Shown here: piece by piece, positions 3,154 to 23,057 of the stretch
Layout of the letters: the number at the start of each line of letters is the position of its first letter
How positions within the stretch are numbered: the first letter of the stretch is position 1
Sequence record: NC_055708.1
DNA length: 64,000 nt
Direction: 5' to 3' (one strand)
Source: Enterobacteria phage ATK47
Made by a program: the position numbers and the translations under genes
The notes under the pieces: model-generated
What the model was told of the DNA's origin: nothing
What the model saw: the letters and a program-made list of their open reading frames with translations, nothing else
The model's database searches: none

Positions 3154-3567
3154 ATGACTCGTATCAATTTAACACTTGTTTCTGAACTGTCCGACCAACA
3201 TCTTATGGCTGAGTATCGTGAATTACCACGCGTATTTGGTGCAGTCCGTAAACATGTTCAAAACGGTAAACGTGTAAAGGATTTTAAAATCTCTCCAACA
3301 TTTATCTTAGGCACAGGTCACGTAACATTCTTTTACGACAAACTCGAATTTTTACGTTTACGTCAAATCGAGCTAATCGCTGAATGTTTGAAACGTGGTT
3401 TCAAAATCAAGGACACGACAGTCCAGGATATTTCCGACATCCCTGCCGAATTTCGTAATAATTATGTCCCGTCCGAAGCGTCCATTGCGATAAGTCAAGC
3501 ACGCTTAGATGAAAAAATTGCTCAACGTCCGACTTGGTACAAATACTATGGTAAATCAATTTACTAA
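3154..3567 (+). CDS. denV: Endonuclease V, pyrimidine-dimer DNA glycosylase
   Basis: [12 protein letters not shown]...[16 protein letters not shown] matches T4 endonuclease V as recalled. Confidence 0.95.
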
Positions 3568-3574
3568 GGAAAAA

Positions 3575-3904
3575 ATGAAAACATATCAAGAGTTTATCAC
3601 TGAAGTTACATTATCTGCGGAACAGAAAGCTGCTATCGAAGAAAGTAAAAATCCCAAAGTAACATATAAAGTAAATAGTAAAGGCGTTTTTGATGGCTTG
3701 GTTCAAGACCCTGAATTGAAAAAAGCTCTTTCTAAAACTAATGCGTACTTTGCTCCTAAATTTAACACAGCCGGTGTACTTATTGGATTGGATGTATTCA
3801 ACTCTAAAGGTGTTCTATCTAATGCCTTTGGCTATGCCGCTAACAAAATTACCAAAGCCGCATGGGAATCCAATACCAAACAAGCTCAAAAGCCTAGAGT
3901 ATAA
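3575..3904 (+). CDS. Internal protein (IPII/IPIII-like) with capsid targeting sequence
   Basis: Starts MKTYQEFITE (capsid-targeting sequence); start overlaps denV stop. Confidence 0.7.
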   Translation: MKTYQEFITEVTLSAEQKAAIEESKNPKVTYKVNSKGVFDGLVQDPELKKALSKTNAYFAPKFNTAGVLIGLDVFNSKGVLSNAFGYAANKITKAAWESNTKQAQKPRV

Positions 3905-4076
3905 TTCTTGTCTAATAAAGGGAAACGCAACCTCTCCTTATGAACGTCGAGTCCTCTGAGTGATGTACCTTTTCCAACCTGTAATAAGGTCGAGCGCAAT
4001 GCGGTAATGGGTTTACATAGCGAGTCGAAGGACCTAACATGTGCCACGGAATGGCCCAAACCTTAAGAGAAATAAT

Positions 4077-4616
4077 ATGAGAACATTTTTAACTGGACCT
4101 TATCTATCCCTGATGAATGCTTTTACACACCATTCTGATGCTAGAGTAGAAGAAATTTGTAAGAACGGTTATATCCCACCATTTGAAGACGTACTCAAGC
4201 AGTACTGTACACTTCGTTTAGACGGCGGCAGACAATCAGGTAAATCAATTGCTGTGACTAACTTTGCTGCTAATTGGCTGTACGATGGTGGAACAGTTAT
4301 TATTCTTTCTAATACTTCAGCTTATGCTAAAATTTCTGCTGGCAACATTGAAAAAGAATTTTCTCGTTATTCTAGCGACAATATTCGATTCCGTTTATTT
4401 ACTGATTCTGTCCGTAGTTTTATTGGCAATGAAGGTTCTAAATTCCGTGGATTAACGCTTTCTCGTATTCTGTATATAATTGACGAGCCTATTAAAGCTC
4501 CTGATATGGATAAGATTTACAATGTCCATATTAAAACAGTACAGTACTGCTGCAAAAGCAAATATTGCATCGGCGGTAATTCTCGTCCTCAATTTTTTGT
4601 GATTGGAATGCAATGA
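4077..4616 (+). CDS. Hypothetical protein (positional equivalent of the T4 vs.8-vs.3 block)
   Basis: ORF with SD; start taken at internal ATG 4077. Confidence 0.45.
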   Translation: MRTFLTGPYLSLMNAFTHHSDARVEEICKNGYIPPFEDVLKQYCTLRLDGGRQSGKSIAVTNFAANWLYDGGTVIILSNTSAYAKISAGNIEKEFSRYSSDNIRFRLFTDSVRSFIGNEGSKFRGLTLSRILYIIDEPIKAPDMDKIYNVHIKTVQYCCKSKYCIGGNSRPQFFVIGMQ

Positions 4617-17234: not shown

Positions 17235-18185
17235 ATGACACGTTCACATTACATTGAATACTTTGCCGGGCTTATCGCTAACGTTCATGCTCAGCGCGCT
17301 ACTGGTGCACTAGGATTTGATGTTCCACACCGAGATGTAGTAAGTGGTATTCTTCGCGATTTTGGTACATACACAGGCCAAGAAAATCATATCTGTAAAG
17401 ATACTCAAAATGCATATTCTCATTCATTAGGGACGCTGCTTCAATGGTTCAAACGTTCTCGTTTATTATCTTCTACTGTAGCTCGCGATAACATTAAAAA
17501 CTTTATGAAGCCGAGCTTTATTAAATCTGTGACATCTAAAACCGATTTGGTTGAATTCACTATTGTTAATGATGTTAAAAAGACTCATTTGGCTGATTGG
17601 TTATCTACCATTCCTGAAACTAAATTTGCTGATAAATTTGCTTGTGAATTCAATAACCAAGTGAATATGCTTTTTAAACATTCTCGTAAATTATTCACGG
17701 GCGGTGATGGTCGTACAAATAAAGTTCATGTTAAAGATTGGGTTACTGCAGTATTCAAACCGACCGGTAATGGTAACGCATCATTATCAATTGATATCCA
17801 GGTTCCTTATTACTACTCACGTAATCTCGGTACCATGAAAGCCGAAGAAATTAATAAGCACAACAAAACCGTTCGTTCATTGTCTTATAAACTTATTACA
17901 TTGTTAGAGACTATGGATGTTGTTGAAACGTTCGACGAATCCGAAGATAACGGTTCAATGTTATACAGTTCTCGTACCAGAATTAAGCTGAAGAACCCTA
18001 ACGAGTATAAACTTAAGACTATTAAAGAACCTAAAGTAGAAAAAGTTGACAACTTGAGCGAAGAACGTGAATACCTCAAATCTCGTCTGAAAGAAGTCGA
18101 AGCCCAGATTAAAGAACAAACTAAATCGTTAAAAGCTCTTAATGCGAAAGCGGATGGTTTACGAAATGCCATTGAGGTTTTATAA
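17235..18185 (+). CDS. Hypothetical protein with C-terminal coiled coil
   Basis: ORF. Confidence 0.5.
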   Translation: MTRSHYIEYFAGLIANVHAQRATGALGFDVPHRDVVSGILRDFGTYTGQENHICKDTQNAYSHSLGTLLQWFKRSRLLSSTVARDNIKNFMKPSFIKSVTSKTDLVEFTIVNDVKKTHLADWLSTIPETKFADKFACEFNNQVNMLFKHSRKLFTGGDGRTNKVHVKDWVTAVFKPTGNGNASLSIDIQVPYYYSRNLGTMKAEEINKHNKTVRSLSYKLITLLETMDVVETFDESEDNGSMLYSSRTRIKLKNPNEYKLKTIKEPKVEKVDNLSEEREYLKSRLKEVEAQIKEQTKSLKALNAKADGLRNAIEVL

Positions 18186-18490
18186 TGAAACTACGTCTTT
18201 TAGAGGATATTGATATGAACACTAATCACAGCTTGGTTAAGTTTATTGACGATAGTTCAAAGATTGAATTTGTTCAGCGAGATAAAATCCACGGTGAAGA
18301 AGAGTTCGTTCCTCCAGCATGGAACGAAATCATGAAAATGGTTGAACGACGTGAAAATGCTGCCAAATCGGCAGCAAAACACCCATGTCCGGAATGTGGA
18401 ACTATCCAAGTCCAACTGGTTAACTGGACCACTGATAACTTGAAATTGAAATGCCGTAAATGCTTCCACAATTTTGAGAGAACATTATAA
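18185..18490 (+). CDS. Zinc-ribbon protein
   Basis: CPECG...CRKC pairs. Confidence 0.45.
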   Translation: MKLRLLEDIDMNTNHSLVKFIDDSSKIEFVQRDKIHGEEEFVPPAWNEIMKMVERRENAAKSAAKHPCPECGTIQVQLVNWTTDNLKLKCRKCFHNFERTL

Positions 18491-18903
18491 TGAGATATAG
18501 CCTTCGTTGTTTTATCGCAGCTTTAGTTTTTGCTATTATTCCATTCATTTGGAACAGCCAGAATACTTACATGGAAACTAAAGTAATTCCTGTGGAGGTA
18601 GTGGAATTAATCTCAGGACAATCTACAGGAAAATATTCTAAATTGGAATTTATTGCAGTCTATAAAGATGAGCAAGGACGAGTTTTTGACAGGCGTGTAT
18701 CGCCATCGTTTTATACGCTTCTGAATAAAGGTGATACGATAGCTATAGAAATTCGTGAGATGGATATCAAACAAACTACTAAAGATAACTTGATTTGGTT
18801 CTTTGGTACAGTGTTGTTGGTTTCTATCTGTATCACAGGTTTTATTACATGTATTGTATTTGGCGTTGCATATTTAATCGATGAAAGGAAAAATAATGTT
18901 TAA
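18490..18903 (+). CDS. Hypothetical membrane protein
   Basis: Hydrophobic N- and C-terminal helices. Confidence 0.4.
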   Translation: MRYSLRCFIAALVFAIIPFIWNSQNTYMETKVIPVEVVELISGQSTGKYSKLEFIAVYKDEQGRVFDRRVSPSFYTLLNKGDTIAIEIREMDIKQTTKDNLIWFFGTVLLVSICITGFITCIVFGVAYLIDERKNNV

Positions 18904-19159
18904 AGTGTACGGGTACGACTCTACTATTCATAAATGCATTTATTGCGATAATGCGAAACGATTGCTGACTGTTAAGAAACAGCCATTCGAATTCATTAAT
19001 GTTATGCCGGAAAAAGGTGTTTTTGATGATGAGAAAATTGCTGAGCTTCTGGCTAAGCTTGGACGTGAAACACATGTTGGATTGACGATGCCTCAGGTGT
19101 TTGCTCCTGACGGAAGTCACATTGGTGGATTTGACCAACTACGAGAATATTTTAAATGA
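18896..19159 (+). CDS. nrdC: Glutaredoxin/thioredoxin NrdC
   Basis: MFKVYGYDS..HKC.YCDNAKRLL matches T4 NrdC as recalled. Confidence 0.95.
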   Translation: MFKVYGYDSTIHKCIYCDNAKRLLTVKKQPFEFINVMPEKGVFDDEKIAELLAKLGRETHVGLTMPQVFAPDGSHIGGFDQLREYFK

Positions 19160-19452
19160 GTATTGATTTAACTTTCCCTGGCCCTTATGACCAGGGTGAA
19201 TTAGAAGCTTTATTATATCAAGAAATGTGCTCTCGTGCCAAGAACGATATTCAGTATGCTATCGATAATCCATGGGGCGAATTTCGAGTAATGATGGGTA
19301 ATCGAATCATCGGTGTCCAATGGCGATTCGTTGGCCTTGAGCCTGAGGACTATGAAGAAAACGAGCACGGTGACTGGATTCCCGTTGGTGAATATCACTG
19401 GGAATACGGTGGTCCTGATTTTGAAGTCTCTTGTTCATGGGTAGAACAATAA
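19156..19452 (+). CDS. Hypothetical protein
   Basis: ORF. Confidence 0.4.
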   Translation: MSIDLTFPGPYDQGELEALLYQEMCSRAKNDIQYAIDNPWGEFRVMMGNRIIGVQWRFVGLEPEDYEENEHGDWIPVGEYHWEYGGPDFEVSCSWVEQ

Positions 19453-19470
19453 CCTGCGAGAAAATTTTAA

Positions 19471-19827
19471 ATGACATATTCATTAAATCTTAAAGATTTC
19501 CAGGATGTATACGAAGTTTGTGCCAATGAACTTGGTCCTGATGCTCCAACTATTATTGAAGTTTTAAATGTGCTACCTTCAACATTAGCTTACGAAGCCA
19601 AATCATGGGGATGGAACGACACTGTCGTTCGTGATGACCTTTACATCCTGATGAACGATATGATTGTTAAAAAGGCAGAACCGGTTGCACCAATGGTTAC
19701 CATTACCGTTGAAGAATATAATCGCCTGCAAGCCATTGAAGAGCTTCTGTGGAACATTGAATGTGACCTGCCGTCAGGGCTAGAATCCTGGATTGATTAT
19801 GAAGAGCTCAATAAACTCCGGGGTTAA
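19471..19827 (+). CDS. Hypothetical protein
   Basis: ORF. Confidence 0.45.
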   Translation: MTYSLNLKDFQDVYEVCANELGPDAPTIIEVLNVLPSTLAYEAKSWGWNDTVVRDDLYILMNDMIVKKAEPVAPMVTITVEEYNRLQAIEELLWNIECDLPSGLESWIDYEELNKLRG

Positions 19828-19955
19828 ACCGTGGTATTCTGCTCGATGGGAGACTGTCGAGCCAGACGTTGAAACGGTTTACAACGACGAAGAACCATGT
19901 TATGATGAACCTTCAATAAATGAATTAATTGATATGGAAATGGGAAGAGATTATT

Positions 19956-20126
19956 ATGCAAGTTAAATTATTGTACCGTTTATTAAAAAACGGCAAACAT
20001 GATTGGTATTTGCTTATTAAAACCGATCCGAATTTTTTCTCTGGACAACCATTTACAGTTCGTCCTACTAAACGTCAGCTTCGCAAAGCTAAACGTTCTC
20101 ATCGTAACTTTTATAGAGAATATTGA
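19956..20126 (+). CDS. Small basic protein, paralog A
   Basis: C-terminal RPTKRQLRKAKRSHRNFYREY; paralogous to 20551-20730. Confidence 0.35.
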   Translation: MQVKLLYRLLKNGKHDWYLLIKTDPNFFSGQPFTVRPTKRQLRKAKRSHRNFYREY

Positions 20127-20127
20127 T

Positions 20128-20541
20128 ATGAATATTTCTGAAACTCGCGGTAAATGGTTCAAGATTGTTAAAGAAGATGAAGAACTACAAGTCAAGTTTC
20201 CTGAATTAAAGAAAGGAACAATCATCAAGGTAATTGGTACTACTACCGAAGATGGTTATGGCGACCATGGCATTATCGAAGTGATGTTGAACACAGGTGA
20301 GAAACTTTGCATCTATGACCGTGATACTTCTCTTTGGTGCTTCTGGGAATCCCATTCAATAGATGAACTCGAAGAAATTGACCAAGTAGTTTGTGATGGT
20401 GGACTTGGCGAATTCGAAGGTGAACGTATTTCTTATGCTTTAGCTAAATTAGCTGGTCAAGAAAATAATGACGGTTATGAAGGTAATCTGATGCAAGCCG
20501 CAGCGGAATACATTGAATACTTAGAAAGACGTTTAAGTTAA
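20128..20541 (+). CDS. Hypothetical acidic protein, 137 aa
   Basis: ORF. Confidence 0.45.
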   Translation: MNISETRGKWFKIVKEDEELQVKFPELKKGTIIKVIGTTTEDGYGDHGIIEVMLNTGEKLCIYDRDTSLWCFWESHSIDELEEIDQVVCDGGLGEFEGERISYALAKLAGQENNDGYEGNLMQAAAEYIEYLERRLS

Positions 20542-20550
20542 AGGTTTATT

Positions 20551-20730
20551 ATGAAAACTGAACTATTTTATGGTGAAAGAAAAAATGGGCAAAAATCCTG
20601 GAAATTTATTATGATTGGGGCCCCAAACAATCCAAATATGAGGACTTCAATTATTTCAGAAACTCGTCCTACTAAAAGAATGATTCGTCAGTATAAGCGT
20701 TTCCATCGAGACTTTTATAACGTTTACTAA
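20551..20730 (+). CDS. Small basic protein, paralog B
   Basis: C-terminal RPTKRMIRQYKRFHRDFYNVY; 59 aa, not in ORF track. Confidence 0.35.
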   Translation: MKTELFYGERKNGQKSWKFIMIGAPNNPNMRTSIISETRPTKRMIRQYKRFHRDFYNVY

Positions 20731-20732
20731 AT

Positions 20733-20764
20733 TATAAATACCCTTATCTATTTAAGGTAAGGGT
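20733..20764 (+). promoter_or_regulatory. Late-promoter consensus TATAAATA followed by hairpin accctta/taagggt upstream of gene 49
   Basis: Exact TATAAATA at 20733-20740. Confidence 0.5.
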
Positions 20765-20769
20765 TTATC

Positions 20770-21243
20770 ATGTTATTATCAGGCGCAAAATATAAAGAAG
20801 AAAAACAAAAATTTTATGATGCACAGAACGGTAAGTGTCCTATTTGCCACCGTGAATTAGACCCTGATGTTCAAGGTAACCATCTTGACCATGACCACGA
20901 ATTAAAAGGGCCAAAAGCCGGTAGAGTTCGTGGTTTACTATGTAACCTGTGCAATGCAGCAGAAGGTCAAATGAAGCATAAGTTCAACCGTTCCGGTTTG
21001 AAAGGTCAAAACGTTGACTACTTAGAATGGCTTGAAGCTCTTCTTGCTTATTTGAAACAAGATTATTCTGATAATAATATCCATCCTAATTTTGTTCCGG
21101 ATAAAACTAAAGAGTTCTCAAGACTAGGTAAAGAGGAAATGATGACCGAGATGCTTCAAAGAGGATTTGAATATAATGAATCTGATACTAAAACACAATT
21201 AATAGCTTCATTCAAAAAGCAGCTTAGAAAGAGTTTAAAATGA
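20770..21243 (+). CDS. 49: Endonuclease VII (Holliday junction resolvase)
   Basis: Near-identical to T4 gp49 as recalled (CPICHRELDPDVQGNHLDHDHEL...). Confidence 0.95.
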   Translation: MLLSGAKYKEEKQKFYDAQNGKCPICHRELDPDVQGNHLDHDHELKGPKAGRVRGLLCNLCNAAEGQMKHKFNRSGLKGQNVDYLEWLEALLAYLKQDYSDNNIHPNFVPDKTKEFSRLGKEEMMTEMLQRGFEYNESDTKTQLIASFKKQLRKSLK

Positions 21244-23057
21244 AAATTGAAAAAGAAATTGAAGGATTAATTTATAAAACTAATAAAGATCTTTTGAACG
21301 AGAATGCTAATAAAGATTCTCGTGTTTTTCCAACTCAACGGGACCTTATGGCTGGTATTGTGTCTAAGCACATTGCCAAAAATATGGTCCCGTCTTTTAT
21401 TATGAATGCGCATGAAAGCGGAATCATTCATATGCATGATATTGATTATTCTCCTGCTCTTCCATTTACTAATTGCTGTTTAGTCGATTTAAAGGGGATG
21501 CTTGAGAATGGATTTAAATTAGGCAATGCTCAAATTGAAACGCCTAAATCGATTGGTGTTGCTACTGCAATTATGGCACAAATTACTGCACAAGTTGCTT
21601 CCCATCAATACGGCGGAACGACTTTTGCTAATGTAGATAAAGTACTTTCTCCTTATGTTAAACGCACCTATGCAAAACATATTGAGGATGCAGAAAAATG
21701 GCAAATCGCTGATGCGTTGAATTATGCTCAATCCAAAACAGAAAAAGATGTCTATGACGCATTCCAAGCTTATGAATATGAAGTAAATACTCTCTTTAGT
21801 TCAAACGGACAAACGCCTTTTGTAACAATTACATTTGGTACTGGAACTGATTGGACCGAACGAATGATTCAGAAGGCAATTCTTAAAAACCGCATTAAAG
21901 GTCTTGGTCGTGATGGAATAACTCCTATTTTCCCTAAACTTGTTATGTTTGTCGAAGAGGGTGTTAATCTTTATAAAGACGATCCGAACTATGATATTAA
22001 GCAACTCGCTCTAGAGTGTGCAAGCAAAAGAATGTATCCTGACATTATTTCTGTTAAGAATAATAAAGCTATTACCGGTTCTTCAGTTCCAGTTTCTCCA
22101 ATGGGTTGCCGTAGTTTCTTGAGCGTATGGAAAGATTCGACCGGTAATGAAATTCTTGATGGACGTAATAATCTCGGTGTTGTAACACTGAATCTTCCTC
22201 GTATCGCATTAGATTCTTATATTGGAACACAGTTCAATGAACAGAAATTTGTTGAATTATTCAACGAACGAATGGATCTGTGCTTTGAAGCTTTGATGTG
22301 TAGAATTAGTTCCTTAAAAGGAGTTAAAGCGACTGTTGCTCCTATTCTTTACCAAGAAGGTGCATTCGGGGTTCGTCTTAAACCTGACGACGATATAATT
22401 GAGTTATTTAAAAACGGTAGAAGTTCAGTGTCTTTAGGATACATTGGTATTCATGAATTGAATATTCTTGTTGGCCGTGATATTGGACAAGAAATTTTAA
22501 CTAAGATGAATGCTCATCTTAAACAGTGGACTGAAAGAACTGGATTTGCTTTTAGCTTGTATTCTACACCTGCTGAAAACCTTTGTTATCGTTTCTGTAA
22601 ACTCGACACAGAAAAATACGGAAGTGTAAAGGATGTCACTGATAAAGGCTGGTACACTAATAGTTTCCATGTTTCAGTAGAAGAAAATATTACTCCGTTT
22701 GAAAAGATTTCTCGTGAAGCGCCATATCATTTCATTGCGACAGGTGGTCACATTTCTTATGTTGAACTTCCAGATATGAAAAACAATTTAAAGGGACTTG
22801 AGGCTGTCTGGGATTATGCTGCACAACATTTAGATTATTTTGGTGTTAATATGCCAGTAGATAAGTGTTTTACATGCGGAAGCACCCATGAAATGACTCC
22901 TACTGAAAACGGATTTGTTTGTTCAGTTTGCGGAGAAACTGATCCTAAAAAGATGAACACTATAAGAAGGACCTGCGGTTATTTGGGAAATCCGAACGAG
23001 CGCGGATTTAATCTAGGCAAAAATAAAGAAATCATGCATAGGGTTAAACACCAATGA
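21240..23057 (+). CDS. nrdD: Anaerobic ribonucleoside-triphosphate reductase NrdD
   Basis: 605 aa; C-terminal glycyl radical motif RRTCGYLG; uninterrupted (no intron). Confidence 0.95.
   Translation: MKIEKEIEGLIYKTNKDLLNENANKDSRVFPTQRDLMAGIVSKHIAKNMVPSFIMNAHESGIIHMHDIDYSPALPFTNCCLVDLKGMLENGFKLGNAQIETPKSIGVATAIMAQITAQVASHQYGGTTFANVDKVLSPYVKRTYAKHIEDAEKWQIADALNYAQSKTEKDVYDAFQAYEYEVNTLFSSNGQTPFVTITFGTGTDWTERMIQKAILKNRIKGLGRDGITPIFPKLVMFVEEGVNLYKDDPNYDIKQLALECASKRMYPDIISVKNNKAITGSSVPVSPMGCRSFLSVWKDSTGNEILDGRNNLGVVTLNLPRIALDSYIGTQFNEQKFVELFNERMDLCFEALMCRISSLKGVKATVAPILYQEGAFGVRLKPDDDIIELFKNGRSSVSLGYIGIHELNILVGRDIGQEILTKMNAHLKQWTERTGFAFSLYSTPAENLCYRFCKLDTEKYGSVKDVTDKGWYTNSFHVSVEENITPFEKISREAPYHFIATGGHISYVELPDMKNNLKGLEAVWDYAAQHLDYFGVNMPVDKCFTCGSTHEMTPTENGFVCSVCGETDPKKMNTIRRTCGYLGNPNERGFNLGKNKEIMHRVKHQ

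Follow-up and report, generated by a model that had tools for sequence, protein, structure and literature searches.

What are the two small basic genes that bracket an acidic gene upstream of gene 49 in Enterobacteria phage ATK47, and do the three form a functional unit? The locus lies within a stretch of 64,000 nucleotides (nt) of this phage (NC_055708.1), referred to here as the window. A sequence-only reading had taken the three for a basic/acidic/basic triad, in which a duplicated nucleic-acid-binding protein would partner an acidic one, perhaps a DNA mimic. Our results show that the two basic genes are anciently diverged paralogues of one family, DUF7279 (PHROG 3272), and by homology the acidic gene between them is pin, which encodes an inhibitor of host Lon protease. 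The best explanation overall, which we consider moderately probable, is that the basic genes are old paralogues residing in a plastic genomic island and form no module with their neighbor; a role as an accessory binder of polyanions is added to this explanation with low confidence. The open reading frames (ORFs) in question, with lengths in amino acids (aa), and the repeat that they contain are:

19956-20126, + strand: DUF7279 copy 1, 56 aa, pI 10.8, net charge +11 (Pfam PF23945, PHROG 3272)
20060-20115, + strand: left arm of a 56-nt direct repeat, in the C-terminal coding part of copy 1 (repeat search)
20128-20541, + strand: pin (PinA), 137 aa, pI 4.4, net charge -15 (Pfam Inhibitor_I24, PHROG 2167)
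20551-20730, + strand: DUF7279 copy 2, 59 aa, pI 10.5, net charge +9, equal to RB69ORF087c (Pfam PF23945, PHROG 3272)
20664-20719, + strand: right arm of the 56-nt direct repeat, in the C-terminal coding part of copy 2 (repeat search)

Between positions 19400 and 21300 the window matches Enterobacteria phage ATK48 (KT184310) with 100% identity and RB69 with 97.6%. ATK48 is a Mosigvirus, that is, one of the RB69-like Tevenvirinae. The small ORFs and the motifs by which they had been recognized are exactly as first described, and so are their basic character and their placement on either side of the acidic ORF upstream of gene 49. Copy 1 carries KNGKHDW near its start and ends in RPTKRQLRKAKRSHRNFYREY, and copy 2 carries KNGQKSW and ends in RPTKRMIRQYKRFHRDFYNVY. 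The proposed duplication was confirmed by alignment: the two proteins are 39% identical over their full lengths (pairwise BLASTP, E 4e-12). Both score above the gathering score of 24.5 bits for Pfam DUF7279 (54.5 bits for copy 1 and 50.7 bits for copy 2), and both match PHROG 3272 from end to end (E 6e-27 and E 2e-29, respectively). Members of this family are proteins of about 7 kDa with a net charge of +9 to +11. Alignment of 15 sequences revealed invariant columns at W17, R39-P40-T41-K42, R46, K49-R50, H52-R53 and F55 (copy-2 numbering), and this invariant core is complete in both copies.

At the DNA level the similarity between the copies is moderate overall, and the best stretch, the 56-nt direct repeat with a spacing of 604 nt, is only 73% identical, which indicates an old duplication. 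A hidden Markov model built from both copies detected no third one in the window, and DUF7279 occurs at only two places in the whole ATK48 genome. With the copies of other genera, copy 2 shares 53-60% identity, against 39% with copy 1; for copy 1 the identity with those copies is only 36-44%. In a neighbor-joining tree, which is weak because its alignment has about 55 columns, copy 1 branches outside all other copies. Copy 1 represents a Mosigvirus-specific lineage positioned directly after gene 49.1. Copy 2 belongs to a lineage common to Tequatrovirus and a series of other T4-like loci (L007-L012 among the 19 loci compared below) and groups with the copies that follow pin in other genera.

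The sequence-only reading would have been abandoned had the small ORFs not been conserved in relatives. Conservation is clear: at an amino-acid identity of at least 80%, copy 1 is present in 144 phage records and copy 2 in 53. Pairwise Nei-Gojobori comparisons spanning Mosigvirus, Tequatrovirus and other T4-like loci gave ratios of nonsynonymous to synonymous divergence (dN/dS) mostly of 0.04-0.3 at a synonymous divergence that rose to 0.4-0.7 in either lineage; for copy 1 the range was 0.06-0.3 with pS of at most 0.47, and for copy 2 it was 0.1-0.3. Since dN/dS is low at high synonymous divergence, these substitution patterns indicate that both copies are kept as proteins by purifying selection. 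One could still suppose that the ORFs are chance or degenerate frames without a protein product and that their similarity reflects a repeat at the DNA or RNA level. Both ORFs are shorter than 60 aa, copy 1 has no annotation in ATK48 and is frameshifted in RB69, and one metagenomic contig has a frameshift in copy 2. However, this supposition is extremely improbable in view of the dN/dS values, the 39% protein identity beside merely moderate DNA similarity, the confident AlphaFold2 models of both copies, and the recognition of the family by Pfam and PHROGs. A search of positions 19000-21400 against Rfam, in turn, found no credible RNA family.

Two of the frameshifts can be traced to homopolymer runs. 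An A6 run in RB69 copy 1 carries one A too many (L002, about 2035), which accounts for the shortened product annotated as RB69ORF089c, and copy 2 of the IMG/VR contig L005 has an additional T in a homopolymer run at about 3100. These insertions could be real pseudogenization or sequencing errors. In the ATK48 record, copy 2 is a hypothetical protein and copy 1 is not annotated; copy 2 is listed in RB69 under the name given above. Copy 1 is a real gene that was left out of the ATK48 annotation and shortened in that of RB69.

The identity of the middle gene bears directly on the proposed triad. ORF 20128-20541 matches Pfam Inhibitor_I24 (PF10465) with 165.4 bits against a threshold of 27 bits (E 8e-49, residues 7-137 on model positions 2-136) and PHROG 2167, "inhibitor of host Lon protease", with E 1e-51. 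It is named "pin" in the annotation of both ATK48 and RB69. By sequence homology this ORF is an orthologue of PinA, and inhibition of Lon by the Mosigvirus protein may be expected from its T4 homologue. PMC8835725, with the references cited there, describes T4 PinA as binding Escherichia coli Lon directly and blocking ATP-dependent proteolysis, and as inhibiting both the ATPase and the proteolytic activity of Lon. The charge pattern of +11, -15 and +9 is real, and the three ORFs are closely packed on one strand, as would suit a pair of nucleic-acid-binding proteins with an acidic DNA mimic as partner. The middle protein is indeed acidic, yet it is a clear PinA orthologue with a protein, Lon, as its known target, which makes such a module very unlikely.

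Separate pieces of Pin were observed in the 170-172-kb T4-like loci L009-L012 (about 2030-2500). A 57-aa C-terminal module there corresponds to Inhibitor_I24 positions 88-136 (31 bits). In L010, a 100-aa module resembling the N-terminal part of Pin was also found at 2029-2504 (positions 3-74, 28.5 bits), so that the modules stand in permuted order, C-terminal and then N-terminal.

A fixed module should also travel together, and comparison of 19 loci showed that it does not. Between 49.1 and gene 49 at least seven layouts were identified, in which pin and the DUF7279 copies are arranged as follows:

49.1, copy 1, pin, copy 2, gene 49: the window, L005, the divergent contig L018, and RB69 (copy 1 frameshifted)
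49.1, copy 1, pin (141 aa), gene 49, no copy 2: AV112, KAW3E185 and mar005P1
49.1, a single chimeric copy, gene 49, no pin: phiE142 and FL18
49.1, pin (148 aa), one copy, gene 49: Tequatrovirus SfPhi01
49.1, pin (161 aa, fused to a tail), gene 49, no intact copy: T4 and T6
49.1, PinC (57 aa), (another ORF), one copy, gene 49: the 170-172-kb T4-like loci L009-L012
49.1, one copy, gene 49, no Pin: L007

It follows from these layouts that copy 1, pin and copy 2 each occur without the others, and the order basic/acidic/basic is not a fixed module. Salmonella phage S16, a Gelderlandvirus, provides a further argument. In this phage (L017, 1801-2497) two DUF7279 genes, gp48.1 (42.4 bits) and gp48.2 (41.8 bits), bracket a 116-aa ORF, gp48.3, which belongs to PHROG 13441. 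A relationship of gp48.3 to Pin was considered and ruled out (BLASTP E about 10, different PHROG family). The same flanking layout with other cargo argues against a specific basic/acidic partnership. What stands of the sequence-only reading is therefore a set of real, basic, duplicated genes conserved in relatives; the functional triad and the DNA-mimic module are not supported, since the acidic ORF is PinA, the genes occur singly in relatives and the S16 pair flanks an unrelated ORF.

If the genes do not form a module, the question becomes why pin is present in some relatives and missing from others. The single DUF7279 copy of phiE142 and FL18 consists of copy-1 sequence up to CATCGTAACTTTTATA and of copy-2 sequence from there onward through the stop codon, the late promoter and the hairpin that precede gene 49. 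The crossover falls within 9 nt of identity, ACTTTTATA, located at 20107-20115 and 20711-20719, the ends of both repeat arms. The chimera junction removes exactly 604 nt, which equals pin plus one copy-equivalent. This junction was found as a contiguous sequence in 28 of the best 60 records, corresponding to 24 distinct phages (at least 24 Mosigviruses). Phage ST0 is another natural example of a chimera that lacks pin. From these 28 records we estimate that roughly a fifth of Mosigvirus records are pin-less by such a crossover. The two copies thus act as direct repeats and serve as a recombination substrate for the deletion of pin, which explains the missing pin in many RB69-like phages. The chimera probably arose by deletion and not by insertion, since its tail FYNVY resembles the copy-2 lineage (FYNT, FYNI) and not copy 1 (FYREY, FYRGY).

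Comparable recombination left a DUF7279 tail on PinA of T4 and T6. PinA of these phages has 161 aa with a 15-aa C-terminal tail, whereas Pin of the window has 137 aa and no tail; the Pfam model of Pin covers only residues 4-141 of T4 PinA. In DNA, the T4 tail MIQQYKRLHQMFYNT (L003, NC_000866, 3898-3945, - strand; for T6, L019 1585-2070) is colinear with MIRQYKRLHRAFYNT at the 3' terminus of the SfPhi01 copy and is followed by an identical downstream promoter and hairpin. In T4 the first 43 codons of the DUF7279 copy are gone and the remainder is in frame with pin; T6 PinA has the same 161-aa form. Two family-invariant arginines are replaced in the T4 tail (R46Q and R53Q). Judged by this colinearity, the last 15 residues of T4 and T6 PinA are a relic of a DUF7279 gene and lie outside the conserved Pin core. 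In locus L008, the fusion of pin to the tail and a full copy are separated by a duplicated piece of the 3' end of pin.

This attachment to PinA, together with the spacing of the genes, raises the main alternative, namely that DUF7279 acts with PinA on host Lon and that the gene linkage is functional. DUF7279 could then, for example, inhibit Lon jointly with PinA, bind Lon as a pseudo-substrate, or be a labile basic protein shielded by PinA. In SfPhi01 and L009-L012 the DUF7279 start and the stop of Pin (or of stand-alone PinC) overlap by 1 nt. In the window pin starts 1 nt after the copy-1 stop and copy 2 starts 9 nt after the pin stop. T4 and T6 PinA have kept the DUF7279 tail in frame, and most DUF7279-bearing genomes have pin too. 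However, no Pin module accompanies DUF7279 in L007, S16, phiE142 and FL18, and the Mosigviruses of this kind number at least 24 in all; conversely, T4 and T6 have Pin without an intact DUF7279. The two arginine replacements in the T4 tail are as expected of a relic, and synteny among close relatives is not independent evidence. We therefore consider a partnership on the Lon axis unlikely.

The second neighbor of the DUF7279 genes is gp49.1. The remaining features of the locus are:

18881-19159, + strand: nrdC (gene order)
19156-19452, + strand: 49.3-like ORF (gene order)
19471-19827, + strand: 118-aa ORF with a PHROG 3402 match in its C-terminal module
19799-19966, + strand: homologue of gp49.1, 55 aa, acidic (ATK48 and RB69 annotation; PHROG 2382)
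20733-20740, + strand: T4-type late-promoter consensus TATAAATA (exact consensus match)
20740-20764, + strand: 10-bp hairpin with the Shine-Dalgarno sequence of gene 49 in its 3' arm (RNA fold; labeled "terminator" in ATK48)
20770-21243, + strand: gene 49 (endonuclease VII), followed by nrdD

The gp49.1 homologue (pI 4.05, net charge -9; PHROG 2382, E 4e-28) is named "gp49.1-like" in ATK48 and RB69 and was found in 17 of the 17 related loci examined. It shares 11 nt (19956-19966) with copy 1, its stop overlapping the copy-1 start. The same 11-nt overlap of the 49.1 stop with a DUF7279 start was seen in L007 (2501-2511) and S16 (L017, 1801-1811), that is, in three genera, which suggests a long-standing translational coupling of the acidic and the basic small protein. 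In the window, both DUF7279 starts overlap the stop of the preceding gene or fall within a few bases of it.

Such coupling invites comparison with toxin-antitoxin pairs. Type II toxin-antitoxin operons have an acidic-then-basic gene order similar to that of 49.1 and DUF7279. In such a scheme gp49.1 would neutralize the translationally coupled DUF7279, and Pin would protect a Lon-labile partner. The overlap in three genera, the opposite charges (-9 for gp49.1 and +9 to +11 for DUF7279) and the presence of 49.1 in every DUF7279-bearing locus are consistent with it. However, no toxin or antitoxin family was matched in Pfam, NCBIfam or PADLOC, and pin modules stand between 49.1 and DUF7279 in Tequatrovirus and L009-L012. 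Gene 49.1 is also a core gene that is present where DUF7279 is absent, and in one reported assay, against OLD defence, Gp49.1 had no phenotype (PMC13096335). Together these findings render a toxin-antitoxin pair highly improbable. A HicA-like, His-dependent RNase was also considered for DUF7279 and rejected because there is no family match and the conserved His52 is Asn in S16 gp48.1.

Having set these alternatives aside, we return to old paralogues in a plastic island as the preferred explanation. The DUF7279 genes sit in a variable accessory island that extends from nrdC/49.1 to gene 49. In the window and in all copy-bearing related loci except S16, they are positioned between 49.1 and gene 49, and gene 49 forms the right border of the island in all compared loci except S16, where a 361-aa ORF replaces gene 49 at the corresponding position. 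Other changes were seen around gene 49. In L018 (Logan contig ERR15137311_302) a 275-aa ORF lies between copy 2 and the gene 49 hairpin (3280-4107); with its S-adenosylmethionine-binding motif IIEPSAGSGNF and NPPY it resembles an N6-adenine DNA methyltransferase, although Pfam matches are weak. AV112 (L013, 2304 onward) and FL18 (L015, 1881-2568) have annotated homing endonucleases after gene 49, where the window has nrdD. The neighborhood is a hotspot for mobile insertions, and the homing endonuclease ORFs add evidence for this.

Two observations concern the left part of the island. The 118-aa ORF comprises two modules, each encoded by a gene of its own in RB69 (ORF092c/091c), SfPhi01 and S16 (gp50.3/gp50.1). 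Its C-terminal module matches PHROG 3402, "antitoxin from a toxin-antitoxin system" (E 2e-32), and more weakly the Pfam family of the T7 gp5.9 RecBCD inhibitor (E 0.016). Based on these matches, this ORF may be another anti-defence gene of the island. In the ATK48 record (L001 1-1004, equal to about 17235-18903 of the window), homologues of nrdC.3, nrdC.2 and nrdC.7 are named "thioredoxin", and in RB69 they are hypothetical or membrane proteins. The ATK48 names were probably transferred from nrdC by mistake.

On the right side of the island, TATAAATA at 20733 is one of four exact late-promoter matches in the window. It directly follows the copy-2 stop, and its position upstream of gene 49 is kept in all aligned relatives. 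The hairpin at 20740-20764 (-12.9 kcal/mol, z -2.6) is invariant across Mosigvirus and Tequatrovirus sequences. From established regulation of T4 gene 49, we take TATAAATA to be a late promoter. By analogy, promoter and hairpin look like the known T4 arrangement in which translation of gene 49 is masked on early transcripts.

How far does DUF7279 extend beyond these loci? In a set of 5.8 billion proteins clustered at 90% identity, the family accounts for 17 clusters. A HMMER search of 1.84 billion representatives returned three true representatives, an S16-like protein and a 29-aa fragment, and no relatives outside DUF7279; additional matches were short stretches of long repetitive proteins. 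Matches in tblastn were limited to T4-like phages of Escherichia, Shigella, Yersinia, Salmonella and Proteus. In these searches DUF7279 is restricted to T4-like phages of enterobacteria (Tevenvirinae). Weaker matches to PHROGs 15176, 8921, 12748 and 2375, all unannotated, have the motif PTK...R..KR in common at their C-terminal ends, which suggests a slightly broader group of small basic proteins in T4-like phages. PADLOC and NCBIfam gave no matches for the small DUF7279 proteins, and our literature search found no paper that mentions DUF7279, PF23945 or the RB69 ORF names. The copies belong to a catalogued family without an assigned function and are, as an object, already known.

What a DUF7279 protein might do can be approached through its predicted structure. 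AlphaFold2 models were computed from the 15-sequence alignment. The model of copy 2 has a predicted local distance difference test score (pLDDT) of 89.3 with strands at residues 2-9, 15-22 and 31-36 and a helix at 42-58; that of copy 1 has a pLDDT of 80.6 with strands at 2-9, 15-24 and 27-33 and a helix at 39-55. Both copies are predicted to share a fold in which an amphipathic helix at the C-terminus packs onto a three-stranded antiparallel sheet. On a helical wheel, K42, R46, K49, R50 and R53 (copy-2 numbering) fall within a 100-degree arc, with hydrophobic and aromatic residues on the opposite side. Because the basic arc opposes the hydrophobic face, the predicted helix is amphipathic with an invariant, exposed basic stripe. 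Structural neighbors in BFVD are uncharacterized small proteins of the T4-like phages Merlin, CBH8 and S16. Searches with the sequence against solved structures matched only designed beta-propellers, which we judged spurious. A bS21-like reading of the basic tail was dropped because the resemblance is of low complexity only and the predicted fold is not all-helical.

From these features we propose, with low confidence, that DUF7279 would be a dispensable accessory factor that is probably made early in infection and binds a polyanionic target via the basic face of its helix. Nucleic-acid binding is plausible from the charge and the invariant basic helix face of the model, and RNA or DNA would be our tentative choice of target. 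It is placed slightly ahead of an acidic host protein because of charge density and a loose arrangement resembling that of double-stranded RNA-binding domains (dsRBDs). With an acidic host protein as target, a possibility that we rate as rather doubtful, DUF7279 could for example be an anti-defence or host-takeover inhibitor. The family appears dispensable because it is missing from the interval between pin and gene 49 in T4 and T6 and frameshifted in RB69 and L005. The copies are encoded in a co-oriented run of tightly packed or overlapping genes that includes nrdC and pin, and early expression is suggested because they precede the late promoter of gene 49 and stand outside it.

Several points weigh against this interpretation. 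No direct evidence of translation and no expression data for RB69-type phages were found in the literature, and T4, the only relative with omics data, lacks a DUF7279 gene. A Foldseek search against the PDB returned nothing below E 0.8. The polyanionic target is proposed from charge and the predicted helix face, and early timing is deduced from position and orientation only, the promoter matches being matches to a consensus. The direction of the deletion is likewise argued from the likeness of the NVY tail and not from a rooted genome phylogeny. Finally, DUF7279 genes of several genera are closely coupled to the C-terminus of Pin, and behind this could lie a functional link to Pin, which our explanation takes for synteny only.

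The surroundings of DUF7279 also bear on its role. We know of no defence system that is countered by DUF7279. A product of the same island in T6, gp49.2, inhibits OLD defence, and its locus was amplified under OLD pressure (PMC13096335). By analogy, the island context, with gp49.2, Pin acting against Lon, and the methyltransferase-like ORF of L018, favors a host-directed or anti-defence role. In its most specific form this idea would have DUF7279 work in counter-defence or proteostasis via its basic helix, either as a partner of PinA on Lon or as an inhibitor of a host defence factor, which we regard as improbable. If it were true, the duplication, flanking and fusion around different cargo genes (pin in Mosigvirus, gp48.3 in S16 and the tail on T4 PinA) would reflect selection and not recombination noise, and the classic T4 PinA used in all biochemistry would be a Pin::DUF7279 hybrid. 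Should DUF7279 prove to be anti-defence or related to Lon, it would be one more small effector beside the OLD inhibitor gp49.2.

As it stands, with old paralogues in a plastic island as the favored explanation, the finding is an ordinary one: a catalogued, uncharacterized family beside a well-known gene in a region already known as plastic. The new elements are modest and consist of the paralogues as substrates for the loss of pin, the DUF7279-derived tail of T4 PinA and the flanking layout that recurs in S16. The origin of the PinA tail may be relevant to anyone mapping the interface between Pin and Lon.

Three known systems offer themselves for comparison. Like a dsRBD, DUF7279 is predicted to have three antiparallel strands followed by a helix that opens with a basic motif, RPTKR in DUF7279 and KKxAK in dsRBDs, and a conserved Gly-containing loop joins strands 1 and 2. 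The N-terminal helix of the helix-three strands-helix fold and a Pfam dsrm match, by which dsRBDs are recognized, are both missing from DUF7279. With type II toxin-antitoxin systems it shares a small acidic ORF, 49.1, that overlaps the start of a small basic one, but it matches no family of such systems, and in other genera pin intervenes between the two genes. The anti-OLD protein gp49.2 of T6 has no sequence relation to DUF7279 and is absent from the window, yet the two are alike in their setting: both come from the same nrdC-49 island and are encoded by small, dispensable, patchily distributed and rearrangement-prone genes.

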